Assembly (NCBI GenBank): GCA_029258755.1
Contig: JAPDKC010000020.1
Span: 532 to 64,531, forward strand
Direction of reading: 5' to 3'
Length of the DNA: 64,000 nt
Source: an archaeon
GTDB lineage: Archaea > Iainarchaeota > Iainarchaeia > Iainarchaeales > DTGL01
The first letter of the stretch is position 1. The number at the start of each line of letters is the position of its first letter. A program made the position numbers and the translations under genes. Below, piece after piece: positions 25,447 through 47,890 of this stretch. The notes under the pieces are model-generated. The model was not told the origin of the DNA, made no database searches, and saw only the letters and a list, made by a program, of their open reading frames with translations.

Positions 25447-25498
25447 TAGCAGCTTTTTTAATTTTGTTTCTGCCAAATTTTAACATAGAGATGCCTAT

Positions 25499-25570
25499 GG
25501 GCCGGTAGCTCAATGGAAGAGCGCTGCCTTCGCACGGCAGAGGCTCCGGGTTCAAGTCCCGGCCGGTCCA
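25499..25570 (+). tRNA. tRNA-Ala (anticodon CGC), no encoded CCA
   Basis: Cloverleaf folded by hand. Acceptor GGGCCGG/CCGGTCC with a G3:U70 wobble, the Ala identity element. D-arm GCTC/GAGC. Anticodon arm CTGCC-TTCGCAC-GGCAG. T-arm CCGGG-TTCAAGT-CCCGG. Discriminator A. Confidence 0.85.
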
Positions 25571-25617
25571 TGCCAAACAATTTTAACTTCTTTTGTTTCT
25601 ATCTATATGGGGGCAGG

Positions 25618-30484: not shown

Positions 30485-31234
30485 CTATTTAAATTTTTCT
30501 TGTTGTAATAACTTGGGTATAATCTCTTCCAACCACTTTGCAAATTCTGTTTTGCTGATCTTTTCTACGCTGCTTAAAGAATCTTCCAAGCCAGGGTCAA
30601 ATTTAATCGCACCCAAATATCTTATGCCTAAATCTTTAGCATTTCTTTTTATAAAATCGGAATCTTTTTGCTTCATGTTTTCGATAATTCCTATAACCGG
30701 AATGCTTTGTTGCTTTAACATCTTTATCATTCTTTCCACACTTTCCCAAGCAAGCTTCGATTGCGTACTTACAAGTAAGAATTCTAATCTTTTTATCGCT
30801 CTTATTATTTCAAGCGTTGCATCTCCAATGCCTGGGGGCATATCAATAATGAGAAAATCAAGCTCTTTCCAAATTGTTATAGCAAGCAATTCTATTATTG
30901 CGTTTGAAACATCAATGCCGCGCAAAGGTGCTGGCTTATCCTCAATAAAGTATATAATCGACATAAATTTTATTCCGTAAATTGTAGGAGGCAAAAGCCC
31001 TTTTTCTTCTTGGGGAAAAGCAGGCTTTATGCCAAGTATCATGTGATCTGAAGGGCTGAAAAAATCCAAATCCAATAAGCCGACTTTGTAGCCCCTCTCC
31101 GCCAACTTTAAAGCAAGCGAGCAAGAGATAACGCTTTTTCCCACGCCCCCTTTGCATGCAGAAACAGCAATAATTCTTTTGACACCTTTTAACCTATCTT
31201 CTATAACACTAAACCTTGCATCTATGCCTAACAT
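30485..31234 (-). CDS. Mrp/MinD-family P-loop ATPase, probably the ATPase-type HypB (Ni-insertion partner of HypA)
   Basis: Deviant Walker A 'AVSACKGGVGKS'. Length 249 aa. Its start abuts the hypA stop at 31234. In Thermococcales an Mrp/MinD ATPase replaces the GTPase HypB. Confidence 0.65.
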   Translation of the reverse strand: MLGIDARFSVIEDRLKGVKRIIAVSACKGGVGKSVISCSLALKLAERGYKVGLLDLDFFSPSDHMILGIKPAFPQEEKGLLPPTIYGIKFMSIIYFIEDKPAPLRGIDVSNAIIELLAITIWKELDFLIIDMPPGIGDATLEIIRAIKRLEFLLVSTQSKLAWESVERMIKMLKQQSIPVIGIIENMKQKDSDFIKRNAKDLGIRYLGAIKFDPGLEDSLSSVEKISKTEFAKWLEEIIPKLLQQEKFK

Positions 31235-31638
31235 TAAATCTCCTCTACAGAAGCTATGGAAAGGCCTCGGCCTTTTTTAATCTCAAAGTCAACGCTTTTA
31301 CAATTTGGACATTGCATATAGCTATGTGCTATATCTGGAATAAAATGTATAAATTCCGCTTGCTTTTCGCTTAGCCTTTTTTTTGTTTCGCTAAGATTCC
31401 ATTCGAAGCCGCAAGTCCGGCATTTTAATTTGGCCTTTTCCTCCTTTATTTCATAGGTTATATGCCAATCTTTAAGCTCTTTTGTTATTTCTTCAAGCGC
31501 ATGTGTGAATATTTCTTTATCTATTTGCTGTAGTTCGCCAAGAAGCACGCTTACCTTTATCCGCTTTTTAAAACCATTCTTGTTTGCAAAATCTGTTGCT
31601 GCTTTTACTACTGCTTGTGCTAAAGACCACTCGTGCAT
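31234..31638 (-). CDS. hypA: Hydrogenase nickel-incorporation protein HypA
   Basis: N-terminal 'MHEWSLAQAVV' and zinc site 'CRTCGFEW...CPNCKS'. Confidence 0.8.
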   Translation of the reverse strand: MHEWSLAQAVVKAATDFANKNGFKKRIKVSVLLGELQQIDKEIFTHALEEITKELKDWHITYEIKEEKAKLKCRTCGFEWNLSETKKRLSEKQAEFIHFIPDIAHSYMQCPNCKSVDFEIKKGRGLSIASVEEI

Positions 31639-31721: not shown

Positions 31722-33320
31722 ATGCCAAATAAAAAGACGATTAAAGAATTTTTAAAACCAGATTGGAAAAAGATTGTTCTGAGCTTTTTGCTGCTTTTAG
31801 CTTGTTTTTTGTTTTTCGTTTCAGTAACTGCTTTGCCCATGCCAGTCTCCATGATTCCTGTTATTACAGGCTTGTTCTTGGCACTCCTTTTGCCCTTTGC
31901 CGTGGTTTATAATCTGTTGTCTTTTGGTATTCCGGATATTGTTGCATTAATTATAGCTTTTAGTTTGCATGTTTTCTATTTTTATGTCGTTTCCTGCTTT
32001 TTAGTGTGCTTATTGGCACGCCTAAAGAATTTGATAGTGTCCATAAAATGGAGTAAATGGGATGCAAAAACACTTGGTGTTCTGGCGAGTATAGCAGTGA
32101 TTGGAATCGCTGTTTATGGCTTTCTAAATCTTGGTTGGACCGACATATTTATTCCGACTGCTGATGACAGCGGAGCAACGCCAGAAGGGATTACAGAGGT
32201 GGTTAAGGCAAATAACCAGTTTGCTATCAAGCTTTACTCGGAAATAAGCAAAGATTCTAATGGAAACATATTTTTCTCTCCTTGGAGTGTATCAACTGCA
32301 ATGGCAATGGTGTATGAAGGTGCTCGGGGCCGGACGGCAGATGAAATAAGATCCGTTTTTCAGTTTCCTGAAGATAATGACAGAAGAAGGTTTTCCTTTG
32401 CGAGACTACTGAATACAGTGAACAAGACTAGCGGAAGATACGAATTTCATGTTGCGAATGCAATATGGTTGCAGAAGGAATATCCTTTTTTAGAGGAATA
32501 CAAAAATATAATATGGAGATATTATTTAGGTGAAATCAGGAATGTAGATTTTGTAAATGATGCTGCCAGCTCAAGTAATGAGATAAATAACTGGGTTGCA
32601 GACCATACAAATAACAAAATAAGAGAAATTGTGCGTCCAGAGATGTTCAACGAACTTACCCGTGCTGTGCTTACGAATGCGATATATTTCAAAGGAAAAT
32701 GGAAATACCAGTTTGATAAGCAACACACAAAACCGGAGGATTTTATCCTTGGTTCTGGAGAAAAGGTTAAGGTTCCAATGATGCAGCTTATGGATTCAGA
32801 TTTGGAATTCAATTATGCGGAAATGGATGGTGTGCAGATACTTGAAATAAAATATCAGGGTGACAAAATATCAATGCTGGTTCTCCTGCCAAGAACTAAC
32901 ATACACTACTTAGAATCAATACTGACTGAAGAAAGGCTTCAGAAGTGGCGAAACAGCCTTAAACCCGAAATAGTTTACATATACATGCCCAAATATAAAT
33001 TTGAAACCTCTTACTCATTAACAGACTATTTAAAAGATATGGGAATGCATTCACCTTTTGAATGGCCTGGTGCAGATTTCTCTGGAATTGATGGAACAAA
33101 GACGCTTTACATTAGCGATATCTTGCATAAAGCATACGTAGATGTCTGTGAGGAAGGCACAGAGGCAGCAGCGGCAACTACCATTCTTGTTACGAAAGGA
33201 GCAGCACCCAAGCACCCAGTAGTATTTAGAGCAGACCGTCCGTTTATATTCATAATACAGGAAAGCAAAACGGGAAACATTCTTTTCATTGGCAGGGTAA
33301 TGCAGCCTGTAGGTTATTGA
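31722..33320 (+). CDS. Serpin (serine protease inhibitor) with an N-terminal multi-TM membrane anchor
   Basis: About 140 aa with 3-4 hydrophobic helices, then a serpin core 'NIFFSPWSVSTAMAMVYEGARGRT', hinge/RCL 'EEGTEAAAATTILV' and C-terminal 'FRADRPFIFIIQESKTGNILFIGRV'. Confidence 0.8.
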   Translation: MPNKKTIKEFLKPDWKKIVLSFLLLLACFLFFVSVTALPMPVSMIPVITGLFLALLLPFAVVYNLLSFGIPDIVALIIAFSLHVFYFYVVSCFLVCLLARLKNLIVSIKWSKWDAKTLGVLASIAVIGIAVYGFLNLGWTDIFIPTADDSGATPEGITEVVKANNQFAIKLYSEISKDSNGNIFFSPWSVSTAMAMVYEGARGRTADEIRSVFQFPEDNDRRRFSFARLLNTVNKTSGRYEFHVANAIWLQKEYPFLEEYKNIIWRYYLGEIRNVDFVNDAASSSNEINNWVADHTNNKIREIVRPEMFNELTRAVLTNAIYFKGKWKYQFDKQHTKPEDFILGSGEKVKVPMMQLMDSDLEFNYAEMDGVQILEIKYQGDKISMLVLLPRTNIHYLESILTEERLQKWRNSLKPEIVYIYMPKYKFETSYSLTDYLKDMGMHSPFEWPGADFSGIDGTKTLYISDILHKAYVDVCEEGTEAAAATTILVTKGAAPKHPVVFRADRPFIFIIQESKTGNILFIGRVMQPVGY

Positions 33321-33563
33321 GTAGTGTTGTGCCAGCAACGTTTACAAAAAACTTTTAATAGTTCTTCCCACTACATACATATAATTCTGAGAAGTAAGAA
33401 AATGCTAAAGAGAAACCTTATTAGAAGCAAACCAAGCGATGAAAAAAGCAGCCTGTTGTTAAAGATGGACTTTCCAAAGAAGTAAAATTATTGGGCTTAA
33501 ATGGTTTCGGACAAGCAATGCTTTCTACAAGCTTCAAGCACAAAAATAGGTCTGTGATCAAAA

Positions 33564-34001
33564 TTGAAAATGCTTCTTGGAATTGGTAACGAACTTCTTG
33601 CTGATGATAGCATCGGCTGCTACATAGCTGAGAAGTTTAAGGATGAAAATTGGTTTGTGCAAAACTGTGGCACAGTGCCAGAGAACTACCTTGGGCTAGT
33701 TATCAGAGTAAGACCAGAGCTGCTTGTTATAGTGGACGCAGCACATATGAATCTTAAACCAGGTGAAATAAGAAGGTTAAGGAAGGAGCAAGCATGTTCT
33801 GCTTTTATAAGCACGCACAGCTTGCCCTTAAAGGAATTCATAACCATCGCAAGCAAGTATGCTAAGCAGGTTGTTTTGATAGGAATACAACCAAAAAATA
33901 TTTCTTTTGCTCAGCCTATGAGTGCTGAAGCAAAACAAGCAGCAAGGAAACTTATGAATGTATTGAAGCTTAATAAGTTGGAAGAAATAGAAAGGCTTTA
34001 G
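33564..34001 (+). CDS. [NiFe] hydrogenase maturation endopeptidase (HycI/HybD family)
   Basis: 'MLLGIGNELLADDSIGCYIAEKF' is the canonical N-terminus. Length 145 aa. Confidence 0.8.
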   Translation: MKMLLGIGNELLADDSIGCYIAEKFKDENWFVQNCGTVPENYLGLVIRVRPELLVIVDAAHMNLKPGEIRRLRKEQACSAFISTHSLPLKEFITIASKYAKQVVLIGIQPKNISFAQPMSAEAKQAARKLMNVLKLNKLEEIERL

Positions 34002-34409
34002 CTATTGCTTCTTTTCAGGTATCAAGAAGCCAGCATCTTTATTATAATCTGCTAGCAGAAACTCATCGCTTTGTTCAAGTGCCTTTACAGGGCATATATC
34101 GACACATTGACCGCAAAAAGTGCATCTGCTTACATAATGCTTAATTCGATTGTTTTTTTCATCAAACTCTAACGCTTTAGCTGGACATACGCGAATGCAT
34201 TGCTTGCACCTTATGCATTTATCCTCGTGATAAATTAAGCGTCCTCTAAACCTTGGCGGTGTTTTTATGGGCTTATTTATTTTTGCTTTTCCTTTTTCCA
34301 CTTCTTCCATTAAATGTGTAAAACTTTTTGGCACATGTTTACATGGAAAAGGATTTGTGGAAGGTTTTTTGAAAAGCTGCTTTACTAATTGTTTCACAAA
34401 GGATAACAT
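34002..34409 (-). CDS. mbhN: Membrane-bound hydrogenase subunit N (2x[4Fe-4S] ferredoxin, NuoI-like)
   Basis: Two 'CxxCxxCxxxCP' motifs ('CIRCKQCIRVCP', 'CTFCGQCVDICP'). Last gene of the colinear cluster. Confidence 0.8.
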   Translation of the reverse strand: MLSFVKQLVKQLFKKPSTNPFPCKHVPKSFTHLMEEVEKGKAKINKPIKTPPRFRGRLIYHEDKCIRCKQCIRVCPAKALEFDEKNNRIKHYVSRCTFCGQCVDICPVKALEQSDEFLLADYNKDAGFLIPEKKQ

Positions 34410-34410
34410 G

Positions 34411-35409
34411 CTACATCACCAAGAGCCTATCCAAACCTATAAAAGCTAAACCAAAAAGGGCTAGCAAAAACACATAGTAGATGTAAATCCTTGCAGCTTG
34501 ATCAACCTTTAAGCGAGCAGTAGCAGCGCTTACCAATATCAAGCTAGCAAACATAATAGCAAATGTTTTAACAAGGAAGAAAATAAAATCGGCAATTAAA
34601 GCAAAAATGCTTGGTAACGCTAAAAATGCGCTTATGTTCCATGGGAAGAAAAGAGCTACTATTAAGCTTGCAAATGCAAGTGCTTGCACAGCTTGTGCCA
34701 TAAGAAGCAGAGCCAAATTTCTGCCGCTATACTCTACAAGCACACCTTCAGCTATTTCTGTTTTAGCTTCGCTTATGTCTGCAGGAAGCTTAGCGACCTT
34801 TGCTGGGAATACTGCCAAAGCACTGACTAAAAGAAGAGCAACGCCAAGCTTGCCAATCCCATCAACAAGATTCCAAATAGGATATGCTGTTAAGGTATCA
34901 AATGAGAATGCATATGCACCCGCATGACTAAAAGAAAGGAGCCAAGCAAAAGCGATTACAACAACAGAAAGCACAAATTCATAGCTCATCATGAGCACTA
35001 TTTCGCGTTGAGCGCCTATGCTTGCATAGGGAGATGCAGAAGCAAAAGCGCCGATAGCTAGAGCTAAAGGTGGTATAATAAACAAATAAAGCACTAGGAT
35101 TAGATCACCATGTGCTTGCAAAAGAGGGGGCATGCCCGCAAATGGCATATAAAGAAACAAAAGAAGAGCGCTAGCTAGAGCAACAAGGGGCATAGCGTTA
35201 AAAAGCCATTTTATGGAGTTTGCTGGCACTATATTTTCTTTTATAAATAGCTTTTTTATGTCAAGAAAAGGCTGGATTATTGGCGGTCCTATGCGCGCTT
35301 GCATCCTTGCAATTAGCTTTCTTTCCAAACCGTTAAATAGTAATGAAAGTAAGAGAGCTAGTGTTATTATGAAAATGGAATGCGCTGCTACATGCAGGAT
35401 GTTAAACAT
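34411..35409 (-). CDS. mbhM: Membrane-bound hydrogenase subunit M (NuoH/complex I subunit 1-like)
   Basis: Polytopic 332-aa protein in the NuoH-equivalent position, between the large subunit and the ferredoxin subunit. Confidence 0.7.
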   Translation of the reverse strand: MFNILHVAAHSIFIITLALLLSLLFNGLERKLIARMQARIGPPIIQPFLDIKKLFIKENIVPANSIKWLFNAMPLVALASALLLFLYMPFAGMPPLLQAHGDLILVLYLFIIPPLALAIGAFASASPYASIGAQREIVLMMSYEFVLSVVVIAFAWLLSFSHAGAYAFSFDTLTAYPIWNLVDGIGKLGVALLLVSALAVFPAKVAKLPADISEAKTEIAEGVLVEYSGRNLALLLMAQAVQALAFASLIVALFFPWNISAFLALPSIFALIADFIFFLVKTFAIMFASLILVSAATARLKVDQAARIYIYYVFLLALFGLAFIGLDRLLVM

Positions 35410-36649
35410 GCTCCCACCTTTTCAACCTTTCTTTAATTTTTAAGGTTTTTTTAACACACAATTCATGAATTTTTTCCTGAGCTATTATGGCTTCTTTGTC
35501 CGCTAACACTGCCCTATTTGCACATGACAGGCAGGGATCGATGGATGCAACTATTATTGGCACATCTGCAAGCTCGGAATCTTTAAGCATAGGTACAATA
35601 GTATGCATATTTGCATATGTAGGGGCCCTTATTTTCCATGCAAAGAGGGTTTCGCTATTTTGCATTCTCAAATAATGTATAAGCTCGCCTCTAGGTGCTT
35701 CTACTAAAGCTATGCCCTCATTATCTACCTTTTTCAAATCCACCAGAAGTTTTTGTAAAACCGGTTCATATAGGGTAGGTCCTTCCGGAAGCTCCTTAAT
35801 GCATTTTTCAATTAATTCTAATGATTGCTTTATCTCAAGCAAGCGCACAATTATACGATCGAAAACATCGCCTCTAATTTCGCCAAGAAGCACATCTGGC
35901 GTTATTGCTTCCACATCAAGGTCTGCGTAAGCGGCATAAGGAAAGTCTTGCCTAGTATCCTTTTTAACACCGGAAGCTCTTGCGGTTGGCCCAACAGCAC
36001 AAAGCTTTAATGCCTCTTCCTTGCTTAGCACACCTATGTCTCTAGTTCTTAACTTTATGGTTGGATCATCTAAAAGTATTTCGCACAGCTTTTCATAAGC
36101 TTTTTTGTAGTAAGCGAGCATCTCCTTGATTTTTGGAATTTGCTTTTTGCTTATATCTCTGCGCACGCCACCTATCATAAGTACGGCTTTTGTAATTCGG
36201 TTACCTGTTAGATATTCTATAACGTCTAGCACCTTTTCCCTTATGAGCCATATATAATGCAGGATTGAATCAAAGCCAAGTTCGTGAGCGGCAACACCTA
36301 AAAATAGCAGATGCGAATGAATTCTTTCTAGCTCAGCATATATAGTGCGCAAATATTCTGCTCTTTCAGGTACTCTTATGTTTGCCGCATTCTCAACAGC
36401 GATGCAAAACGCTAGTGGATGGGAAATATTACATATTCCGCAAACGCGTTCCGCAAGGTATATGATTTGAATAGGATTCCTCCGCAAGCCCATCCATTCT
36501 ATCCCTCTATGGACATGCCCTAAGGAAAAGCTAGCGTCTTTTACTCGTTCACCTTCTACAAGCACCTCTATCTGAATAGGTTCTTTCAGAGCTGGATGTA
36601 TTGGACCTATTGAAATGCTGCATTTTTTACTTTTGTTCAATTCGCTCAC
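35402..36649 (-). CDS. mbhL: Group 4 [NiFe] hydrogenase large (catalytic) subunit
   Basis: N-terminal Ni-Fe ligand motif 'RVCGICNISH' and C-terminal 'DPCLSCANR'. Length 415 aa. Confidence 0.9.
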   Translation of the reverse strand: MSELNKSKKCSISIGPIHPALKEPIQIEVLVEGERVKDASFSLGHVHRGIEWMGLRRNPIQIIYLAERVCGICNISHPLAFCIAVENAANIRVPERAEYLRTIYAELERIHSHLLFLGVAAHELGFDSILHYIWLIREKVLDVIEYLTGNRITKAVLMIGGVRRDISKKQIPKIKEMLAYYKKAYEKLCEILLDDPTIKLRTRDIGVLSKEEALKLCAVGPTARASGVKKDTRQDFPYAAYADLDVEAITPDVLLGEIRGDVFDRIIVRLLEIKQSLELIEKCIKELPEGPTLYEPVLQKLLVDLKKVDNEGIALVEAPRGELIHYLRMQNSETLFAWKIRAPTYANMHTIVPMLKDSELADVPIIVASIDPCLSCANRAVLADKEAIIAQEKIHELCVKKTLKIKERLKRWEHV

Positions 36650-37154
36650 CTGTGTGCAAATTTTTTGCTATTTTATTAGCTCCTTTTTTATCTTTTCTCC
36701 AAGGGAATACACCAGCTAGTGAATCATCAAGGAATGCTCTTCCGGGGGCAAGCCCTTTTATTTCTATTCCTAAGAACTCTCTTTTTTCCTTCTCAGAGAT
36801 CAGCGCTCCTGGAATAAGGTCTGTAATTGTCTCCATAACAGGCCTTTTCTTTGGCAATTTAACTCTTAATGTAAGCAAAACCTGTTCTTTTGGCGCGGCA
36901 TAATTCAAAGTGAAATGCAACAATATCTCAATGTTTTGCCCGGTATCAACTCCTGAAGATACTGAGAAATGAGGATACTCTTGCAAGGAGAATAGCTTTT
37001 TCACAACATCTTTTAGCTTTTTGTTGCTGACCTCGGCCCAAACACGGTAAGCCCTATTTTTCTTTAAACCATGTTCAGTTGTAACAATCCTGAAATCGCT
37101 AATATCCTTTGCAAGCGTTTCCTTAAGCTTCTCTATAAGTTCTGTTGCTTGCAT
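36627..37154 (-). CDS. mbhK: Membrane-bound hydrogenase subunit K (NuoC-like)
   Basis: Positional and size match (about 175 aa from the internal Met 'MQATELIEKL'). The track ORF extends to 37226 and overlaps mbhJ. Confidence 0.65.
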   Translation of the reverse strand: MQATELIEKLKETLAKDISDFRIVTTEHGLKKNRAYRVWAEVSNKKLKDVVKKLFSLQEYPHFSVSSGVDTGQNIEILLHFTLNYAAPKEQVLLTLRVKLPKKRPVMETITDLIPGALISEKEKREFLGIEIKGLAPGRAFLDDSLAGVFPWRKDKKGANKIAKNLHTGERIEQK

Positions 37155-37573
37155 TTTTTCATCCCCTCTAGCTTTTCCCAAGCTTTTGCTAGGCCATGGA
37201 TTATAGCTTCTGGCCTTGGCGGGCATCCAGGTACGTAAATATCCACAGGTATGATTTTATCTATAGGGCCTTCAAGATTATACGATTCATAGAATACGCC
37301 ACCTGTTGAGCCGCAATTGCCGACAACAACCACAATCTTTGGTTCTGGCATTTGTTCATAAGCTCTAATTAACCTTTCCTTCATCTTTCTCGTAACAGGT
37401 CCTGTAACAAGCAATACATCAGCGTGCCTTGGACTGCCAACAAGCTTTACGCCAAACCGTTCAGCATCGTAGCGCGGTGTTAGCGCGGCTATTATCTCTA
37501 TATCGCAGCCATTGCATGAACCTGTGTTAATATGAAAAACCCAAAGGGACCTTTTCAAAGCATCTAAGCCCAT
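37133..37573 (-). CDS. mbhJ: Group 4 [NiFe] hydrogenase small subunit (NuoB-like, [4Fe-4S])
   Basis: 'GSCNGCDIEI', 'GNCGSTGG' and 'VPGCPPRPE' cysteine motifs. The start is set at the internal Met 'MGLDALKR'. Confidence 0.85.
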   Translation of the reverse strand: MGLDALKRSLWVFHINTGSCNGCDIEIIAALTPRYDAERFGVKLVGSPRHADVLLVTGPVTRKMKERLIRAYEQMPEPKIVVVVGNCGSTGGVFYESYNLEGPIDKIIPVDIYVPGCPPRPEAIIHGLAKAWEKLEGMKKCKQQNL

Positions 37574-37914
37574 TGCAACACCCCTAAAGTAAGCACAGTT
37601 AACAGCAAGGATGCTACAATAACATACCAAAGTGCATAATCGTTAATTATTCCTGTATGTATCTTTGTTATAAGGTTGTAGTAGGGTTTCATCGCCTCAA
37701 AAAAGCCCCAGAAAAGATCACTTGCTTTAACCCTTGATGCTTCGCTTGCAATATTTCCCGAGAAAAATACATCGGCTTTGTATTTACTCGGCTTAAAATC
37801 CTTTTTTCCGAAAGCTCTAAGGATAAAAATAATGATGCATACACCTATAAAAAACGCAACAAACGCTAAGGGATTCCAAAAGCCACTAGCAGTTTTCAAT
37901 ATTGCGAGTGTCAT
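37564..37914 (-). CDS. mbhI: Membrane-bound hydrogenase subunit I (small membrane subunit)
   Basis: 116 aa with two TM helices. Position and size match MbhI. Confidence 0.5.
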   Translation of the reverse strand: MTLAILKTASGFWNPLAFVAFFIGVCIIIFILRAFGKKDFKPSKYKADVFFSGNIASEASRVKASDLFWGFFEAMKPYYNLITKIHTGIINDYALWYVIVASLLLTVLTLGVLQWA

Positions 37915-39446
37915 CCCAAAGCACCTATATATGCTTTTTGGTTAAGCAAAGCCATGGCTGCGGGCTCAACTATAGTATTTAATACAATATCTGGAAATAA
38001 TCCAAAAATTATAATAAAGAAGCTCAGCATTCCCATTGCAAAAAGCATTGGCTTAGGCACTTCTTTTACGTTTGATAGTGCTTTTAGCTCTGGACCTAAA
38101 AATGCTGAACAAAACACCTTTACGAATGAAACTAATGTAAGAATGCTTACAATCATAGCTATAATAGAAAATAAGGGATTAAAGATATAAGAGGACTCAT
38201 AGATTAAGAGTTTTGAGGCAAACCCGTTTGTTGGCGGCAGGCCAGCGATTGCGGCAGCACCTGTAATAAAGAATATTGTTGTTGCTGGCATCCTTCTTGC
38301 TAGGCCGCTTAGCTCATCAAGATTTCTTTTACCGGTGCTATAAATTATTGCGCCAGCTGTTAGGAAAAGCAAGCCTTTATATAAGGCATGATTTATTATG
38401 TGAAAGATTCCGCCTTCCATAGCTTTCAACGCATAAATGTTTGCGGTATTGCCAACCAGCAAACCTATGCCAACACCAAGAAGCATGTAGCCAGTTTGCG
38501 ATATCGCATGATATGCCATTAAGCGCTTTATATCCTTTTGAGGTAAAGCCATAGTTACACCAATAAACATTGAAAGAATTCCAAGTAAGATTATAGCATA
38601 CGCGATTATATGGATTAACGGAAATGCTCCAAATAAGCTGAATGATACTCTAAAGAGAGCATACAAACAAGATTGGCTTGCAACAACAAGCGTAGCGGTA
38701 ATAGCCGCTGGTGCTCTACTGTAAGCGTCCGGCACCCAGAAATGCATTGGCACAGAGCCGGCTTTCATGGCTAAGGCGGAAACAAGCAATGCTAAAGCGA
38801 TAATGTCCACAAACGAAAACCTAAGCACTTTGGCTAAAGCAGCGATATTAAGCATATCGTATTGTGCATACAAAATCCCAACAGCTAGTAAGACCATGAG
38901 CGATGCAAGCGAGCTTACGATTAGGTATTTATAGGAAGCTTCACTAGCTTTAAAATCGACAAAGAAGGCAATAAGTGCAGCTGAGCTTATTGAAAGCACC
39001 TCTAAAAATACAAAAAGATTGAATAGGTCTGCTGTGCAAGCCAATCCAAACATTCCAGCAAGCATCAAGAACAGCAACGAGTAATACTTTGCTTGCGCTT
39101 CGCGAATAAAGCTTGCGGAATATAGAAATGCCGCAGTAGCAACAATAGAGCTAAGCAGTAGCATAAATGCAGAGAAAGCATCAACTATGAATACTATTCT
39201 TATTGGAATAGCTAGTTTTGCAGGCATTGTGATGCTGGGCAGCTCAGCGCCCATTGTATAAACCTTAGTTCCATTAGCAAATACATCCACAGATGTTAGG
39301 AAAGCGGTACAAACAACTGAAAGCATCCCTACAGGCACAACAATATTTTTTACTTTTGCACTAAGCTTTTCAGTAATTGCTGTAAGAAAAGCAAACGCTA
39401 GCGGAAATGCTATTAGTAAAGCAACGCTGTGCTGAAGTAAGCTCAT
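37911..39446 (-). CDS. mbhH: Membrane-bound hydrogenase subunit H (MrpD/NuoL-type antiporter-like subunit)
   Basis: 511 aa with 14 or more TM helices. The proton-pump family motif region 'WVPDAYSRAPAAITA' is present. Confidence 0.8.
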   Translation of the reverse strand: MSLLQHSVALLIAFPLAFAFLTAITEKLSAKVKNIVVPVGMLSVVCTAFLTSVDVFANGTKVYTMGAELPSITMPAKLAIPIRIVFIVDAFSAFMLLLSSIVATAAFLYSASFIREAQAKYYSLLFLMLAGMFGLACTADLFNLFVFLEVLSISSAALIAFFVDFKASEASYKYLIVSSLASLMVLLAVGILYAQYDMLNIAALAKVLRFSFVDIIALALLVSALAMKAGSVPMHFWVPDAYSRAPAAITATLVVASQSCLYALFRVSFSLFGAFPLIHIIAYAIILLGILSMFIGVTMALPQKDIKRLMAYHAISQTGYMLLGVGIGLLVGNTANIYALKAMEGGIFHIINHALYKGLLFLTAGAIIYSTGKRNLDELSGLARRMPATTIFFITGAAAIAGLPPTNGFASKLLIYESSYIFNPLFSIIAMIVSILTLVSFVKVFCSAFLGPELKALSNVKEVPKPMLFAMGMLSFFIIIFGLFPDIVLNTIVEPAAMALLNQKAYIGALG

Positions 39447-39865
39447 AGCTCATCTAACCTCCCTAGTTTTGTAGCATCCAAAGTGCCAGTTTGCTGATAG
39501 ATTCTAATTGCTAACGAAAGCATAAGGGCTGTTACAGCTAAACTTATTACTATATTTGTCAGAGTTAGTGCTTGCGGGGTTGGAAGCACCATTCTTGTTT
39601 CCGCTTCGCTTGCTTTAATGGTAGCTTCTGTAAATATGGGAGCAACACCCCCTTTTCTGTAACCTGCGGATATAAGAAATAAGTTTATCCCGCTGGCGAT
39701 AATAGCAATGCCTATAGCCATCTTTATCAGATTCTTTTTGAATAAAAGCGCATATAGCCCAAAAAGAACTAAGCAAATCGCAACTAAAAAGTTGGCATTT
39801 TGCAGTATTAGTAGAGCAAACAATAGAGCTTTTTTATTTTCCAGCATGTTTGGACACCTTTTCAT
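39443..39865 (-). CDS. mbhG: Mbh Mrp-module subunit G (MrpC-like)
   Basis: Small polytopic membrane protein, coupled by a 4-nt overlap. Assigned by synteny. Confidence 0.55.
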   Translation of the reverse strand: MKRCPNMLENKKALLFALLILQNANFLVAICLVLFGLYALLFKKNLIKMAIGIAIIASGINLFLISAGYRKGGVAPIFTEATIKASEAETRMVLPTPQALTLTNIVISLAVTALMLSLAIRIYQQTGTLDATKLGRLDEL

Positions 39866-40301
39866 TCAGCATTAAAAGCATAATAATAGTAAGCGCGCAG
39901 CTTACCTCTAAGCCAATAAGAATATTCATTAAAGGTATAGTGCCAGCGGTATTTATGTAAGCTTCTTTTGTCCCGAAAGGAACGCTTGCCCCAAACATTG
40001 CCCCGGAATTTGCCAAAAAATTGTTGAGGAAGCTTTTTCTGAGCCCAAGAAGGGCTAAAAAAACAAATCCAAATAGAGCCAAGCTTTCTGCAACACTTAG
40101 CAGTTCTTTGTTAAGCATATGCTTGCTTTGTTTACCAAAAGCTATAAAGAGCAAAGCAAAGCAGCTTGCTATAATAACACCGCCTTGAAATCCTCCGCCC
40201 GGTGTAAGATGGCCGTGTGCGATTATATAAAGCCCGAATGTTATCAAAGGCGCTAAAACAACAAGTGCTGTTATCTTTACAATTTTCGACATATCTCTCA
40301 T
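39834..40301 (-). CDS. mbhF: Mbh Mrp-module subunit F (MrpB-like)
   Basis: Synteny and TM content. Confidence 0.55.
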   Translation of the reverse strand: MRDMSKIVKITALVVLAPLITFGLYIIAHGHLTPGGGFQGGVIIASCFALLFIAFGKQSKHMLNKELLSVAESLALFGFVFLALLGLRKSFLNNFLANSGAMFGASVPFGTKEAYINTAGTIPLMNILIGLEVSCALTIIMLLMLNEKVSKHAGK

Positions 40302-40564
40302 TTTGGCACACCACCTCTAAAAAGAAGAATGACTCCGCTTACGGCAGCAAAAAGCACTGTAGCTTCGCCTAAGGTGTCAAGTCCCCTATAGTCAAAAACT
40401 ATGGAAGCGACAACATTATTGCTTGCTGTTTCTATTTGTGCATTTTTTATAAAATATTCGTCCATTGTAGTTTCTGTTGGGCTGCCAAATGGTCTAAGTA
40501 GTAAAGCACATGCTATCAAAAAATACGCAAAAATTATTACAAATATTATTTTAGCTGCTTTCAT
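40298..40564 (-). CDS. mbhE: Mbh Mrp-module subunit E
   Basis: Synteny; 88 aa with two TM helices. Confidence 0.5.
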   Translation of the reverse strand: MKAAKIIFVIIFAYFLIACALLLRPFGSPTETTMDEYFIKNAQIETASNNVVASIVFDYRGLDTLGEATVLFAAVSGVILLFRGGVPK

Positions 40565-40802
40565 CTTCCAACCTCCTAGTCTTCTTAATCGCTAGCACAA
40601 AAATGGCTGTAGTTAAGCAGCCGCCAACAGCAGCTTCGGTTATGGCAACATCCGGTGCCTGAAGCAAGAAGAATTCTAGTGAAAGTAGAAAGCTCATTGC
40701 TGCCAACATAACTACGCTGACTAAAAGGTCTTTGGCTTCTATCGCTAGCAAAGCGCTTGCAAGTATTGCAATTAACGTTATGATGTGTAGCACTATTCTC
40801 AC
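40551..40802 (-). CDS. mbhD: Mbh Mrp-module subunit D
   Basis: Synteny; 83 aa with two to three TM helices. Confidence 0.5.
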   Translation of the reverse strand: MRIVLHIITLIAILASALLAIEAKDLLVSVVMLAAMSFLLSLEFFLLQAPDVAITEAAVGGCLTTAIFVLAIKKTRRLEDESS

Positions 40803-41122
40803 CTTTTCAAAGCATTAACTACAAGCTTTTCTGGTTTTATCCCTGCTTTGTATGAAGCTCTTGCTATCGCATGCGATGCTACAGCGTTTGTTATCATAAG
40901 GAATATAAGAGCCACTATTGCATGCAACCCTATTTGTATTTTTGAAATTGCAATGGAATAAATCACTATGGAAAGCACGATGGCAATAGAACCAAAAGTT
41001 GTGCATAGTGTGCTACCATGAAGCCTTGTATATGGATCAAAAAATCTATGCAAAGCAAGAACTCCTATAAGGTGAAATGCCATGCCAAATATTAACAGTC
41101 CGTATATGAGCAAGTAAATCAT
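40799..41122 (-). CDS. mbhC: Mbh Mrp-module subunit C (MrpG-like)
   Basis: Synteny; 107-aa TM protein. Confidence 0.5.
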   Translation of the reverse strand: MIYLLIYGLLIFGMAFHLIGVLALHRFFDPYTRLHGSTLCTTFGSIAIVLSIVIYSIAISKIQIGLHAIVALIFLMITNAVASHAIARASYKAGIKPEKLVVNALKR

Positions 41123-41412
41123 TTCTTCCCCTCCAAATAATGGGCAAGATACAAAGTGCCTGCAAAGGATATCATAGCATAAACTATGCCAATATCAATC
41201 AAAAAAGCCTGCTTGTAAAAGGCACCAAGAACAATGAAAACGCTCACTACTATAGTTCCCATAGTGTCTACAGCCACTATTCTATCAGCAATAGTTGGCC
41301 CTATAGCAGCTCTGAGCAACGCTATTGCTATGCATGCTACTAGCACAAATGCGGAAGCTACAAGTATGCTCATTCTGTTATCCTCCTTATCCAGTCTGCA
41401 AAGCTTGAGCAA
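41119..41412 (-). CDS. mbhB: Mbh Mrp-module subunit B (MrpF-like)
   Basis: Synteny; 97-aa TM protein. Confidence 0.5.
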   Translation of the reverse strand: MLKLCRLDKEDNRMSILVASAFVLVACIAIALLRAAIGPTIADRIVAVDTMGTIVVSVFIVLGAFYKQAFLIDIGIVYAMISFAGTLYLAHYLEGKK

Positions 41413-41945
41413 ACGTCTTTAATTCTAGGTCTTTCTTTTTTCGCATAAAGCCAATGAATATACAGCTTACGGTTTTTTTCTTCTAAAGTAAGCGTTCCTG
41501 GTGTCAGTGTTATTGAATTTGCTAGCATAGCTATGCCCAAATCACTTTTTATCTTGGGGTTTATTTCCACAATAGCTGGCTTAATATTCCCAGAAAGTAC
41601 GCGAAATGCAACCTCGAAATTTGCCTTTATAAGCGAAAAGGCGAAAGGTCCAAAAATATAAGCGAGAAACAATAGCCAACGCTTCGGATTTAATGCCTTC
41701 GCGCCAATTTCTATTCCAAGCTTCGAGGTTATGAATATTGTAATAGACGCAACAATAAAACCTACAATTATGCTTAGGCACAACTCCTCAAAGCTCCATA
41801 GCAAAAAAGTGCCAGAGCCCGCGGTAAGCAACAGATATAGAACTAAAGATAGTAAAAAAGCAATCACAAATGTTGCCAAACCTTTCACCTCTAAGCGTAT
41901 TGCAAATAATATGAATAATGTTTTTATTAGTTTTTTGCCTTCCAT
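41370..41945 (-). CDS. mbhA: Mbh Mrp-module subunit A (MrpE-like)
   Basis: First gene of the minus-strand cluster; 191 aa. Confidence 0.5.
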   Translation of the reverse strand: MEGKKLIKTLFILFAIRLEVKGLATFVIAFLLSLVLYLLLTAGSGTFLLWSFEELCLSIIVGFIVASITIFITSKLGIEIGAKALNPKRWLLFLAYIFGPFAFSLIKANFEVAFRVLSGNIKPAIVEINPKIKSDLGIAMLANSITLTPGTLTLEEKNRKLYIHWLYAKKERPRIKDVCSSFADWIRRITE

Positions 41946-41954
41946 AGATTTGCT

Positions 41955-42875
41955 ATGAACAAAGGTATTATTCTAGTGCTTTTCACGGCATTTGTTAGTG
42001 GGTTCAGTATTTTCATAAATGCATTTGCAGTTAAAGGAATGAACCCTTTCTTATTTACAACCGCAAAAAATAGCTTAGTTGCTTTTCTGCTTTTTTCAAT
42101 ATTGTTTCTTGTAGAGAAAAAAGAGTTTGGAAAGGTTTTCAGTAAAAATTTGCTACCAAAACTTTTAGCAATAGGGTTTATTGGTGGCAGCATACCATTC
42201 TTGCTTTTCTTTTATGCTCTTTCACTTTTGAAAAGTCCGGCAATAGCGGGTTTTATCCATAAAACCCTTTTTTTGTGGGCCACTTTGTTTGCAGTTATTT
42301 TTATTAAAGAAAAAGTAAGCGTGCGCTTTATGTTTGCAGCATTCCTCTTGCTTTTAGGAAACTACCTTTTCTTCCTCCCTCAAACTGAGCTTAGCTTGCC
42401 CGTAGTTTTAGTGCTAATTGCAACAATTTTTTGGGCTGCTGAAAATGTGTTGGCAAAACATGTGCTTAAGGATGTTTCTGGCACTTGCGTAGCATTTGCC
42501 AGGATGTTCTTCGGCTCAATCTTTATGCTTATAGCTCTCTCAATATTTATGCCTGATGCTTTTATAGGGATTCTTTCCTTCAGCTTTGAGCAAGTTGCTT
42601 GGATTGGCATAACAGCTTGCTTCCTTTTCCTTTACGTCTTCACCTATTATAACGGATTAAAATATTTGCCGGTTCACAAGGCAACAAGCATGCTGCTTTT
42701 GGCTCAGCCAATAACGGCTTTTCTTTCAGCATCTTTTCTTGGAAAAGCACTAACGCTTGAAAAAGCACTTGGTGCTTTATTAATCGTTTGCGGTGTTGTT
42801 TTGCTTATTGGCTTTTCTTACGTATTGAGTTGGCTTGGCAGGAAGGTGCCTTTTTGGGCTCAGCAGAGGGCTTAG
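41955..42875 (+). CDS. EamA/DMT-family transporter (10 TM helices)
   Basis: Duplicated 5-TM EamA-like halves; polytopic throughout. Confidence 0.7.
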   Translation: MNKGIILVLFTAFVSGFSIFINAFAVKGMNPFLFTTAKNSLVAFLLFSILFLVEKKEFGKVFSKNLLPKLLAIGFIGGSIPFLLFFYALSLLKSPAIAGFIHKTLFLWATLFAVIFIKEKVSVRFMFAAFLLLLGNYLFFLPQTELSLPVVLVLIATIFWAAENVLAKHVLKDVSGTCVAFARMFFGSIFMLIALSIFMPDAFIGILSFSFEQVAWIGITACFLFLYVFTYYNGLKYLPVHKATSMLLLAQPITAFLSASFLGKALTLEKALGALLIVCGVVLLIGFSYVLSWLGRKVPFWAQQRA

Positions 42876-43588
42876 TAAAAGCATGCAAATATGCTTTTGT
42901 TCCTAATGAGCTCGGGTATTGTGGAGCAAGAAATTTTAATGAGCTGTTTAAGCGCTTTATAAGCTCGCCTTCAGAGAAGCTAAAAGTTGAGGTGAAAAAA
43001 GCATTAAGAAGCTTCACAGCGCTTTATTCCTACCTTTCCCTAATCTCCGAATACGCCTCTAAAGATGTATTTGATGAAAGTGTTGTAGAAGCGTATTGGT
43101 TAGGAAATTCTTTATTGGAAAAGATTCCTGTGCAAGCGGTCAAAGAACTCATAAGCGAAAAATTTGTTGTTTTGCCATCAAAGATAAGAAAAGAAAAAGC
43201 ATCTTTTTTGGCTAGAAAGGTTTACATTCACCATTCCTTTCACGTGCTTTTTATTCAGTTCTTGACTCCGAAACTTAAGCCGCTTTTAACCAATATGGAT
43301 AAGTGCATAGTTAAGTGGGGGAAAATCTTAGAGATAAAAAATGATAAGCTTAGGGTCAAAAGTGTTTCTCTATTATATGAAGGAGCAGAGCTTAAGCTAA
43401 AGGAAAACTACTTCTTTATAAAAAAAGGATTCATCGAAGAACCATACAAAGGCATGCTTATTTCTATTCACTGGGAAAACGCTATTGAAGAAATCTCTAG
43501 AGCTCAAGCAAAGGAAGTCGAGAAGTACTTGCTTGCCAACATCTCGCTTGCAAATTCATATGCCATTCAAAAAACTAATAAAAAATAA
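42788..43588 (+). CDS. Hypothetical protein with an uncertain start: the track ORF overlaps the EamA gene's 3' end by 88 nt
   Basis: There is no in-frame ATG between 42788 and far downstream. The true start may be the TTG at 42830 or may lie after 42875. The C-terminal part 'CIVKWGKILEI...YKGMLISIHWENAIEEI' faintly resembles a HypC-like beta-barrel. Confidence 0.35.
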   Translation: MRCCFAYWLFLRIELAWQEGAFLGSAEGLVKACKYAFVPNELGYCGARNFNELFKRFISSPSEKLKVEVKKALRSFTALYSYLSLISEYASKDVFDESVVEAYWLGNSLLEKIPVQAVKELISEKFVVLPSKIRKEKASFLARKVYIHHSFHVLFIQFLTPKLKPLLTNMDKCIVKWGKILEIKNDKLRVKSVSLLYEGAELKLKENYFFIKKGFIEEPYKGMLISIHWENAIEEISRAQAKEVEKYLLANISLANSYAIQKTNKK

Positions 43589-43614
43589 AAATAATAGATT
43601 CTTTTTATTTACTG

Positions 43615-44058
43615 GTGGTTTGCGTGGGTAAGCTGCAAACAATTCGCGATATTTTTGCGATAGTAAGAGATTTTCTTCTCATAATTTTCTTAATAGCTTT
43701 AATATTTGCTGCGCTTGCCGTATATAACTTTGTTTCAAGTATAGACCCTTCAATGGTCCTTGCAGCGCTAAGCATGGGATCAGCAGATATCGGCTTTGGT
43801 GCTGTTAAGCAGGAGCAACTTTATGAAGCAGATACGGAAATAAAAGCAACTTTGCAGGAGATTGAATCAAAGGCGTTAGCACAAGATATTGCTGGAGTTT
43901 CACAAGAGCTGGATAAGCTTCGCGGTATGCTAAAAGAAAAAGGTATGAGTGAAGCTGTCACTCTTGTCGATGAAATCAAGCAGAAAGCACTACAAAATGA
44001 TTTGCCAGGAGCTATAGAGGCATACTTCCGCTTAAAGCAGATGCTTGGTGTAAAATAA
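43615..44058 (+). CDS. Hypothetical membrane-anchored coiled-coil protein
   Basis: N-terminal TM 'FLLIIFLIALIFAALAVYNFV' followed by a helical region. Confidence 0.4.
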   Translation: MVCVGKLQTIRDIFAIVRDFLLIIFLIALIFAALAVYNFVSSIDPSMVLAALSMGSADIGFGAVKQEQLYEADTEIKATLQEIESKALAQDIAGVSQELDKLRGMLKEKGMSEAVTLVDEIKQKALQNDLPGAIEAYFRLKQMLGVK

Positions 44059-44059
44059 G

Positions 44060-44611
44060 TTAGCGCTTTCTTTCCTCCTTTTTCTTTCGCTTCTCTAGAC
44101 GCCAATACCTTCTCATGCAGTATTTGATCCGTTTTAAAGCTTGCTTCTTGTTCTTGAATCCCTTAACTTTGACCCATTTCTTTGGTTCAAGCTCTTTATA
44201 GGTTTCGAAGAAATGGGCTATACGCCTTAGAACATGGTCATCTAAATCCTTTATATCTTTTATTTTGCCGTATGTTGGATCTATCTTTTCGGTAGGTACC
44301 GCAATAATCTTGTTGTCTATACCATTTTCGTCTTCTGTAACAAGCATCCCTATAGGCCTAACCTCGATTATGCTTCCAGGCATTACTGCTTCATCACTTA
44401 TAACCATCACATCTATAGGATCATTATCGTTTTCCAGCGTCTCTGGAATGAAGCCATAGTTGTAGGGATAAGTCATTGCAGTATACAGGAATCTGCTCAC
44501 TGAGATAACGCCGCTTTTCTTGTGTACTTCGTATTTCACATTGCTGTTCTTTGGAATCTCGATAACCGCATTTACTATTCTTGGCGCCTTTTCACCTATT
44601 TCAAATGCCAT
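44060..44611 (-). CDS. ppa: Inorganic pyrophosphatase (family I) with an unusual basic C-terminal tail
   Basis: 'DPIDVMVI', 'DENGIDNKIIAVP' and 'HFFETYKELE' are family I PPase motifs. An extra roughly 30 aa, 'KKQALKRIKYCMRRYWRLEKRKKKEERKR', follows. Confidence 0.88.
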   Translation of the reverse strand: MAFEIGEKAPRIVNAVIEIPKNSNVKYEVHKKSGVISVSRFLYTAMTYPYNYGFIPETLENDNDPIDVMVISDEAVMPGSIIEVRPIGMLVTEDENGIDNKIIAVPTEKIDPTYGKIKDIKDLDDHVLRRIAHFFETYKELEPKKWVKVKGFKNKKQALKRIKYCMRRYWRLEKRKKKEERKR

Positions 44612-44752: not shown

Positions 44753-44962
44753 CTATGCTTCCTTTAGCGCAGAAAGCATCTCTTTCGCTTCTTCCTCACT
44801 TAACTTTTCAACAACAGTGCCAAACTGCACAATCACCCAGTCGCCTGGTTTTGCATTTGCAAGCGAGTTATTGGCTTCTCTGAGCTCTGAACCATAATCA
44901 ACAACAGCTACCTTACCTTTGCCCTTTAGCTCAACAACCTTGCCAGGTATCGCAAGGCACAT
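44753..44962 (-). CDS. hypC: Hydrogenase assembly chaperone HypC/HupF
   Basis: N-terminal 'MCLAIPGKVVEL' with the essential Cys2. Length 69 aa. Confidence 0.8.
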   Translation of the reverse strand: MCLAIPGKVVELKGKGKVAVVDYGSELREANNSLANAKPGDWVIVQFGTVVEKLSEEEAKEMLSALKEA

Positions 44963-46620: not shown

Positions 46621-47106
46621 TTAATGCAATAGTAATTTCCCCCTTGCTAATCTTCGAGCTACTTCTTCTGCTATTTTTCTAATGTCCTTTTCCCATTGTT
46701 CTGAAAAGTATCTCCTTAGCACATCTTTTGGATATTTCTGAGCATCTGCTTTAAGCCCACGCTTTTCAACAAACCTGCGAACATGCTTAGCGATAAGCCA
46801 TGAAGCATAGCCTTCTCCAAACATTCCCCTGATGATACCACTTAAACCTCTTTTTTCTTTAGCAGCCTTTTCAATTAGCGTGCAGAGAAACCTTCCCTTT
46901 AATATATCTGGAATCTCTAATGATTTATCAGCGGTTAATTGTCTTCCCCAATCAACCAACGCTGAAAAAAGCGAGCTTCTTTTTCCAAGCCGTATTTTTA
47001 CATTTCTGCCAATGGGCCTTCTGGGCTCTTTTCCTGGAAGGCCTGGAACTCTGGCAGAGAGCTGTTTTATCATTTTCTTATATGTTTTTCCTCCTCTTCT
47101 CGGCAT
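46621..47106 (-). CDS. Hypothetical basic protein
   Basis: Intact 161-aa ORF. No recognised motifs. Confidence 0.4.
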   Translation of the reverse strand: MPRRGGKTYKKMIKQLSARVPGLPGKEPRRPIGRNVKIRLGKRSSLFSALVDWGRQLTADKSLEIPDILKGRFLCTLIEKAAKEKRGLSGIIRGMFGEGYASWLIAKHVRRFVEKRGLKADAQKYPKDVLRRYFSEQWEKDIRKIAEEVARRLARGKLLLH

Positions 47107-47419: not shown

Positions 47420-47890
47420 CTATCTTCCATATATAAACAATATTTTGAGCTTCCTTGTGTCTATTCCTTCTTGTTTTGCAAGTCGCTTCGCTAAACCTTC
47501 CAATTTTGGCCTTTCTCTATCAAACGCTTCCCTTTGCATACTGCTTGTTATGTTTCCTATTCTTACAACTCCTCCGGATTTTTTTATTTCTTCTATTCGG
47601 GGCGCTATAAAAATAATAGCACGTGTTATTCCCTCTCCTTCTCGAAAAGTAATGCCTACAATCATAGGCACTCTTTGTTTGCCTATTGCTCCATGTTTGA
47701 ATTTCACTACCTTTCTAAAGAGATGCACTTTATCGCCTTCATAATCAACAAGTTTTTTCATTCCTAATGTTTCAGCGGCAATTGGTTGCCAGCCTCTAAA
47801 GAATACATTCTTATAAATTCGCCTAATAAAATTTCTTAATTTAGGAAGCATCCCTCCTGCCTTTTTTCTTAAAATTCCTTTTTTCACCAT
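47420..47890 (-). CDS. Hypothetical basic protein
   Basis: Intact 156-aa ORF. No recognised motifs. Confidence 0.4.
   Translation of the reverse strand: MVKKGILRKKAGGMLPKLRNFIRRIYKNVFFRGWQPIAAETLGMKKLVDYEGDKVHLFRKVVKFKHGAIGKQRVPMIVGITFREGEGITRAIIFIAPRIEEIKKSGGVVRIGNITSSMQREAFDRERPKLEGLAKRLAKQEGIDTRKLKILFIYGR

Follow-up and report, generated by a model that had tools for sequence, protein, structure and literature searches.

A 14-gene mbhA-N operon for a probable group 4d membrane-bound [NiFe] hydrogenase in a DPANN archaeon of the Iainarchaeota

We analysed a 64,000-nucleotide (nt) stretch of contig JAPDKC010000020.1 (assembly GCA_029258755.1, positions 532 to 64,531), referred to here as the window, and found that its positions 34002..41945 very probably encode a complete membrane-bound [NiFe] hydrogenase of the Mbh type (group 4d, Mrp-linked), which would be an ion-translocating, H2-producing complex of a DPANN archaeon. 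In the HydDB classification, group 4d comprises ferredoxin-coupled, Mrp-linked complexes (PMC5037454).

The region consists of 14 consecutive open reading frames (ORFs), all on the minus strand and listed with their translations, which follow the order of mbhA-N of Pyrococcus furiosus and resemble the 14 subunits of its enzyme (Protein Data Bank (PDB) entry 6CFW) in number, order and size (Table 1). Because neighbouring mbh genes overlap by 4-23 nt or are separated by 1 nt, mbhA-N constitute a single operon of ~7.9 kb, and the overlapping starts and stops together with the Shine-Dalgarno motifs found across the cluster likewise indicate one operon. The G+C content of the cluster is even (0.39-0.40) and similar to that of the flanking DNA, the value for the host being ~39%. 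Pfam families were found for 13 of the 14 genes, the exception being subunit I, which scored 97.5 bits against the NCBIfam MbhI equivalog (curated cut-off 95). The corresponding chain of 6CFW was the top PDB match of each subunit (for MbhN, the top single-domain match) and was the sole PDB match of MbhK. The colinearity with Pyrococcus MbhA-N proposed in an earlier sequence-only reading of this DNA was thus borne out by the ORF list, the Pfam and NCBIfam results and the 6CFW matches. Its scheme of an Mrp-like module A-H, subunit I, NuoB-like J, NuoC-like K, catalytic L, NuoH-like M and N with 2x[4Fe-4S] also agreed with the 6CFW counterpart in each case. The Mrp-derived module contains homologues of MrpE, MrpF, MrpG, MrpB, MrpC and MrpD in addition to MbhD, MbhE and MbhI.

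The start codons were revised using upstream Shine-Dalgarno-like motifs (GGAGG/GAGGTG-like) and the gene calls in close relatives, and the result suggests shorter products for mbhA, mbhB, mbhG, mbhJ and mbhK than those of the longest ORFs. The probable start of mbhA has a GAGGTG motif ahead of it and the calls in relatives give 169-179 amino acids (aa), while that of mbhB is preceded by GGAGG. For mbhJ, the public gene call is also 146 aa, and for mbhG the calls in relatives begin further in (119-124 aa) than the start supported by the Shine-Dalgarno motif. The revised lengths are nearer to those of P. furiosus (A 167, B 84 and K 173 aa), and with the shorter mbhA the divergent intergenic region between this gene and the EamA gene is 75 bp, compared with 9 bp for the longest ORF. 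The sizes given in the sequence-only reading agree with the longest ORFs, and its values of about 147 and about 175 aa for J and K are near the revised 146 and 175 aa, but A, B and G are probably shorter than it stated.

Residues of the Ni-Fe site, the Fe-S clusters and the proton donor of P. furiosus Mbh are all kept in the window. MbhL contains RVCGICNISH and DPCLSCANR, and MbhJ contains SCNGCDIEII and PGCPPRPE; all the motifs that had been cited for these two subunits were found in the translations. In the alignment with 6cfw_L, the Ni-Fe ligands C70, C73, C373 and C376 of the window MbhL correspond to C68, C71, C374 and C377 of P. furiosus, and the earlier statement that the ligand cysteines are intact holds for all four. 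In the same alignment the proton-donor glutamate is kept (E23, equivalent to Glu21 of P. furiosus), as are H77, R320 and D371 (His75, Arg320 and Asp372). All four cluster cysteines of MbhJ, the ligands of the proximal [4Fe-4S] cluster, align with 6cfw_J, and the cluster-binding core of this subunit is near-identical in the two organisms. MbhN carries CIRCKQCIRVCP and CTFCGQCVDICP, giving two CxxCxxCxxxCP motifs. The sequence shows that the peripheral arm J-K-L-N has a full Ni-Fe site along with one plus two [4Fe-4S] clusters. Differences from P. furiosus in MbhL include Glu20, which is Lys in the window, and the L2 motif, which ends in CANR and not in CTDR. MbhL has a C-terminal extension of 36 aa beyond Arg379, and the mature 6cfw_L ends at the aligned Arg380; the adjoining HycI protease would cleave this extension.

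Genes for HycI, HypA, an ATPase-type HypB and HypC all lie within 3.5 kb of the mbh operon, and hycI is convergent with mbhN, with 0 nt between them. The identity of the HypB gene was judged from the top PDB matches of the ATPase encoded at 30485..31234, namely 3vx3_A and the 5aun-5auq series (265 bits, E=5e-78, the next match scoring 115 bits). The entries 3VX3 and 5AUN are the ATPase-type HypB of T. kodakarensis and its complex with HypA, and the window protein is probably the ATPase-type HypB partner of HypA. HypA, this ATPase and HypC are predicted to serve the assembly of the metal centre. The ORFs of the 64-kb window that were scanned with Pfam include no hypD, hypE or hypF. A HycI homologue was detected in 35 of the 85 fetched loci, in most cases immediately after mbhN and on the other strand. 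A small and very basic ORF of 92-98 aa lies just upstream of hycI in three close relatives (L082-L084), and no recognisable counterpart was found in the 243-bp gap 33321..33563 of the window. Between the hypA/ATPase pair and hycI lies a gene for a serpin of 532 aa with a long hydrophobic N-terminal region (31722..33320, plus strand). A copy that is 90% identical occupies the same place in Diapherotrites GCA_021163505 (L083), and it is absent from L082, L084 and L085.

Table 1. Genes of the mbh operon and the adjoining maturation genes in the window (lengths in aa; 6cfw_X, chain X of 6CFW)
Gene	Coordinates	Strand	Length of ORF	Probable start and length	Matches and remarks
mbhA (MrpE-like)	41370..41945	-	longest ORF 191	TTG at 41879, 169	Pfam MNHE E=8e-32; 6cfw_A E=2e-29
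mbhB (MrpF-like)	41119..41412	-	longest ORF 97	ATG at 41373, 84	Pfam MrpF_PhaF; 6cfw_B E=7e-18
mbhC (MrpG-like)	40799..41122	-	107		Pfam PhaG_MnhG_YufB; 6cfw_C E=4e-23
mbhD	40551..40802	-	80-83 (longest ORF 83)		Pfam MbhD E=1e-20; 6cfw_D E=2e-17
mbhE	40298..40564	-	88		Pfam MbhE E=7e-11; 6cfw_E E=4e-11
mbhF (MrpB-like)	39834..40301	-	155		Pfam MnhB; 6cfw_F E=3.5e-22
mbhG (MrpC/NuoK-like)	39443..39865	-	longest ORF 140	ATG at 39847, 134 or shorter	Pfam Oxidored_q2; 6cfw_G E=1e-22
mbhH (MrpD/NuoL-like antiporter subunit)	37911..39446	-	511		Pfam Proton_antipo_M; 6cfw_H E=6e-99, 41% identity
mbhI	37564..37914	-	116		no Pfam match; 6cfw_I E=3e-5
mbhJ (small subunit, NuoB-like)	37133..37630	-	longest ORF 165	ATG at 37573, 146	Pfam Oxidored_q6; 6cfw_J E=4e-63
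mbhK (NuoC-like)	36627..37226	-	longest ORF 199	ATG at 37154, 175	Pfam Complex1_30kDa; 6cfw_K E=7.5e-16
mbhL ([NiFe] catalytic large subunit)	35402..36649	-	415		Pfam Complex1_49kDa and NiFeSe_Hases; 6cfw_L E=5e-114, 48% identity
mbhM (NuoH-like membrane anchor)	34411..35409	-	332		Pfam NADHdh; 6cfw_M E=7e-52, 37% identity
mbhN (NuoI-like, 2x[4Fe-4S])	34002..34409	-	135		Pfam Fer4 x2; 6cfw_N E=3e-27
hycI-type maturation endopeptidase	33564..34001	+			Pfam HycI; NCBIfam TIGR00142 121.6 bits (cut-off 119.1)
hypA (Ni metallochaperone)	31234..31638	-			Pfam HypA; NCBIfam NF003008 163.5 bits (cut-off 125)
Mrp/MinD-family ATPase	30485..31234	-			Pfam ParA (NUBPL-type); overlaps end of hypA
hypC	44753..44962	-	69		N-terminus MCLAIPGKV; 78% identical to the Pfam-annotated HupF_HypC gene of L082

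The nearest named relatives of uL10 in the window are all 'Candidatus Diapherotrites archaeon', and so are those of MbhL (64-79% identity), and for this reason the contig is assigned, on the basis of these proteins, to the Iainarchaeota/Diapherotrites (DPANN). The window also has an archaeal Spt5-uL11-uL1-uL10(P0) cluster, a tRNA intron endonuclease, FtsZ, Rad50 and HerA. An identical MbhL was found in the Logan assembly of run SRR22214790. Homologous proteins are already public and annotated as nickel-dependent hydrogenase large subunits, and close relatives (76% identity) have been named 'membrane-bound hydrogenase subunit alpha' by JGI.

When the GTDB species representatives were scanned with MbhL, at least 591 confirmed relatives were obtained (best match 71%). 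The best 80 loci (L001-L080) were fetched, four further close relatives (L082-L085) were fetched by exact protein look-up, and synteny was determined by tblastn of the 14 window proteins against the fetched loci. The complete A-N order was observed in about 45 of the best 80 of these at least 591 relatives, and contig ends interrupt most of the remaining loci. The related loci come from Iainarchaeum, Thermoplasmatota, Aciduliprofundum, Methanomicrobiales, ANME-1, Atribacterota, Dehalococcoidia, Thermotogae, Bipolaricaulota, Caldisericota and other lineages. L082-L085 have the mbh operon with the same flanks, pyrophosphatase, DUF6390 and EamA genes on one side and hycI on the other, and L082 and L083 also carry the HypA/ATPase pair beside the operon. 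In a neighbour-joining tree of MbhL, for which the sequences of P. furiosus MbhL and Escherichia coli HycE were rebuilt from alignments, the window MbhL was monophyletic with those of L082, L083, L084, L001, L085, L002 and L003. This Iainarchaeota group lay inside a broad MbhL family together with P. furiosus MbhL, with HycE as a distant outgroup. From the monophyletic group and the operon and flanks shared among relatives, the mbh operon therefore looks vertically maintained within this Iainarchaeota subclade.

The EamA transporter, the DUF6390 protein and the soluble pyrophosphatase form a conserved block at 41955..44611 of the window, divergent from mbhA. EamA and DUF6390 genes are beside mbhA in all five of L082-L085 and L002, and the pyrophosphatase was detected in L082-L085. 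About ten Thermoplasmatales loci (L004, L007, L008, L011, L013, L015, L016, L037, L047 and L077) are limited to J-K-L-N and lack the membrane genes, and in L028 the genes A-I and M come after JKLN. The split JKLN arrangement is already known from Thermoprofundales subgroup E (PMC9585477).

Residues proposed to couple ion movement in the membrane arm were taken from a simulation-based model of the P. furiosus enzyme (PMC8679088), which is not a family definition. Of the 14 residues of its coupling path (MbhH E143, K225, K256, H346, H350, K354 and K409; MbhG D37 and H41; MbhD E69; MbhB D35 and N38; MbhM E141), ten are kept in the window and four, MbhH K256, MbhG D37, MbhG H41 and MbhB N38, are changed. 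The kept residues of MbhH are E143, K225, H346, H350, K354 and K409, and Glu141 of MbhM is kept as Glu144. Also kept are Glu56, Asp64 and Glu69 of MbhD, Asp35, Thr39, Asp59 and Ser68 of MbhB, Tyr26 of MbhF, and Thr42, His75, Thr86 and Asn87 of MbhC, in which Pro88 is replaced by Ala.

Lys256 of MbhH, the central lysine of transmembrane helix 8 (TM8), corresponds to Ser257 in the window (Ser-Gln) and is adjacent to a 2-residue alignment gap, and the TM8 segment contains no basic residue whichever placement of the gap is chosen. The position is Ser, Thr or Gly in all 54 of the 54 related sequences from loci L001-L080, and a Lys one position off occurs only in L078 (ANME-1), a locus that clusters with P. 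furiosus in the tree. MbhH occurs in two co-varying variants, Ser with His350/Lys354 and Thr with Asp350 and Ile or Val at 354, and the window has the first. In MbhG, the buried carboxylate of TM2, Asp37, is Glu in 40 of 51 relatives and Ala in the window ('IIASGIN'). L001 and L082-L085 likewise have Ala at this position, and L002 and L003 have Gly. No gap interrupts the TM2 alignment from the conserved NLIK motif to the conserved LISxGYR motif. His41 of MbhG is Asn in the window and in 50 of the 51 relatives, and Asn38 of MbhB, which belongs to the proposed Na+ entry site, is Gly in the window sequence only. Subunits A-I and M were searched for a charged residue that is found only in the Iainarchaeota subclade and could compensate, and no obvious replacement carboxylate emerged in G, D or H. 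This search yielded only Lys216 of MbhM (Glu in 55 of 59 other sequences), Glu29 of MbhM (Asp in the others) and Cys446 of MbhH (His in the others). The idea that the Lys256-to-Ser change of MbhH and the 'CANR' ending of MbhL are peculiarities of the window was rejected, because both are clade-wide in the relatives; the central lysine of TM8 and His41 of MbhG are missing from the whole non-Thermococcales clade.

Among the solved homologues of the window MbhL, P. furiosus MbhL ranked first (385 bits), followed by HycE (261), Thermus thermophilus Nqo4 (190) and MbsL (141). Other known systems resemble the window in part. The Thermoprofundales-type MBH (PMC9585477) belongs to the same broad MbhL clade, in which the window protein shows 55-60% identity to Thermoplasmatota sequences, and has the A-N order, the signatures 'HPALKEP' and 'C.SC[TA]NR', and Ser/Thr-Gln instead of Lys256 of MbhH; the window differs in belonging to a separate monophyletic Iainarchaeota subclade without the TM2 carboxylate of MbhG. 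In the Thermoprofundales, MbhL evolved H2 in vitro and the membrane arm conferred Na+ tolerance, and 14-subunit group 4d MBH clusters are present in mesophilic Thermoplasmatota (PMC9585477). The Mrp Na+/H+ antiporters (6Z16, 7QRU, 7D3U) are homologous to A-H through MrpE, MrpF, MrpG, the C-terminus of MrpA, MrpB, MrpC and MrpD, whereas the window has no MrpA antiporter-like subunit and its Mrp-like module is joined operonically to a hydrogenase arm. Ech (group 4e) consists of six subunits without an Mrp module, and the window has eight extra, Mrp/Mbh-specific ones, A-G and I.

By homology with P. furiosus Mbh, we infer that the complex works in the H2-evolving direction, and the translocated ion is proposed on the same ground. 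If the mechanism follows that of the P. furiosus enzyme (6CFW; PMC8679088; PMC11228991), reduced ferredoxin from fermentation would supply electrons, N and J would relay them to the Ni-Fe site of L, and protons would enter through Glu23 of MbhL and be reduced to H2 at this site. M and I would transmit the small amount of free energy released to the antiporter-like H and to the Mrp-like module A-G, and these would export H+ and/or Na+ and so build an ion gradient usable by an ATP synthase.

Several other explanations of the gene set were weighed against a group 4d hydrogenase. Enzymes of the Mbs/Mbx type are not known to have a complete set of Ni-Fe cysteines. That the cluster encodes such a sulfane-sulfur reductase, or a complex-I/Fpo-like oxidoreductase, with the hydrogenase chemistry lost, is almost certainly wrong and already refuted at the sequence level. 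The subunit set is alike in outline, since P. furiosus Mbs (6U8Y) also has an Mrp-like module and a NuoB/C/D/H/I-like core, and the top NCBIfam models for L were NuoD/FpoD, all below their cut-offs. Nevertheless, the four Ni-Fe cysteines and the equivalent of Glu21 are present, MbsL scored 141 bits against 385 for MbhL, and HycI, HypA, the ATPase-type HypB and HypC are encoded beside the operon. In addition, a fused subunit of 235 aa takes the place of E and F in Mbs, which also has two subunits of the antiporter-like kind, whereas E and F are separate and H is single in the window. These features agree with the earlier conclusion that the complex is a hydrogenase and not an Mbx/Mbs derivative, and the alignment of the subunits to P. 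furiosus Mbh and Mbs, which that reading had proposed, gave the 6CFW chains as the best matches. A formate- or CO-coupled hydrogenase (group 4a formate hydrogenlyase, 4b Mfh or 4c Coo/Mch) in place of a ferredoxin-coupled Mbh is very unlikely. HycE was the second-best solved homologue, E. coli formate hydrogenlyase (7Z0S) shares the group 4 [NiFe] core, with HycE, HycG, HycF, HycD and HycC homologous to L, J, N, M and H, and group 4b complexes are likewise Mrp-linked (PMC5037454). However, formate hydrogenlyase has a fused NuoC-D-type HycE, a formate dehydrogenase partner and no MrpE/F/G/B/C-like subunits, whereas the window has unfused K and L in the mbhA-N order with the Mrp module first. 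No formate dehydrogenase or carbon monoxide dehydrogenase gene was detected among the Pfam-scanned ORFs of the 64-kb window or of the four related loci L082-L085, and this absence, together with the unfused K and L, argues against groups 4a, 4b and 4c. The large subunit is very probably neither of the Mbs nor of the formate-hydrogenlyase type. Decay of the cluster to a non-functional state in a reduced DPANN genome was also considered, with the loss of Asp37 of MbhG (to Ala) and Asn38 of MbhB (to Gly) as points in its favor, and is extremely unlikely: the 14 ORFs are unbroken and translationally coupled, with the catalytic residues in place. Conservation of the operon, of its neighbours and of the Ala substitution across relatives whose MbhL is 69-79% identical to that of the window implies purifying selection.

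The reading of the region as an H2-evolving, ion-translocating group 4d complex has points weighing against it. Three residues central to the P. furiosus ion-coupling model (Lys256 of MbhH, Asp37 and His41 of MbhG) are changed. The 64-kb window encodes neither the ferredoxin-reducing enzymes nor the ATP synthase that the proposed physiology would require, and no search was made beyond it. The exclusion of groups 4b, 4c, 4e, 4f and 4g is based on gene content, PDB comparison and literature. The three changed residues make ion translocation a less secure part of the mechanism than the hydrogenase reaction, and the stoichiometry or ion specificity may differ from that of the P. furiosus enzyme; the hydrogenase assignment is left untouched by these changes. 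It is unlikely, though worth stating, that the Iainarchaeota Mbh couples differently, either as a pure H+ (or pure Na+) translocator with another stoichiometry or as a largely uncoupled ferredoxin:H+ oxidoreductase. This could follow if the coupling residues matter as much as the simulation-based model holds. Still less do we favor operation of the complex in reverse, in which H2, for example from a partner, is oxidised and the ion gradient drives ferredoxin reduction for biosynthesis, as proposed for the Eha/Ech-type enzymes of methanogens. Ech-type group 4 enzymes are described as physiologically reversible (HydDB table, PMC5037454), and the A-N family has members in hydrogenotrophic Methanomicrobiales, for which a role in H2 evolution would not be expected. 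However, DPANN archaea are described as mostly fermenters that need to dispose of reductant (PMC11216029), H2 evolution is the activity of those members of the family that have been characterised (PMC9585477), and the window contains no pointer to autotrophy.

Some features elsewhere in the window are recorded here. An 802-aa protein (6051..8459, plus strand) combines a Lon_C protease domain with a coiled coil that weakly matches CdvA, and a HerA-type ATPase of 909 aa (17121..19850, minus strand) has a C-terminal TrmB-like winged helix, both unusual combinations; a Rad50-like gene (8456..11419, minus strand) lies between them. The sole RNA gene of the window is tRNA-Ala(CGC) at 25498..25571 (plus strand). 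The longest form of ORF 25513..26424 overlaps this tRNA, and for this reason the ORF probably starts further downstream. The segment 46621..54754 has six ORFs without a Pfam match (46621..47106, 47420..47890, 47950..48771, 49685..50221, 50400..51329 and 52880..53860) and four with weak Pfam matches below the cut-off (48844..49623, 51562..52188, 52193..52816 and 53867..54754), and may represent lineage-specific content.

Hydrogenases reported from DPANN archaea include group 3b [NiFe] and small [FeFe] enzymes in Diapherotrites/Iainarchaeota (PMC8561730; PMC11216029), a group 4e enzyme in a Micrarchaeote (PMC8561730) and unspecified group 4 membrane-bound enzymes in non-thermal Aenigmarchaeota (PMC8407114), and most DPANN are stated to have no respiratory reductases (PMC11216029). 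We found no description of an Mbh operon in Iainarchaeota within the limited literature searched. Enzymes of this type are already known, as are the gene order and the wide distribution (6CFW; PMC9585477), and related Diapherotrites proteins are already public. The finding is therefore confirmatory and not surprising, this Mbh being an ordinary member of a widespread family that is notable mainly for its small DPANN host.

The natural substitutions at proposed coupling residues could help those testing Mbh/Mrp mechanisms, and if the Iainarchaeota Mbh does couple differently, it would be a natural mutant series with which the coupling model of Mbh, Mrp and complex I could be tested. Among respiratory systems, Mbh is considered one of the simplest, and it is viewed as related to complex I. 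The intact Mbh with its maturation genes shows that a membrane-bound energy-converting complex is kept in at least one DPANN subclade, and its presence in Iainarchaeota is relevant to whether such organisms can conserve energy independently.

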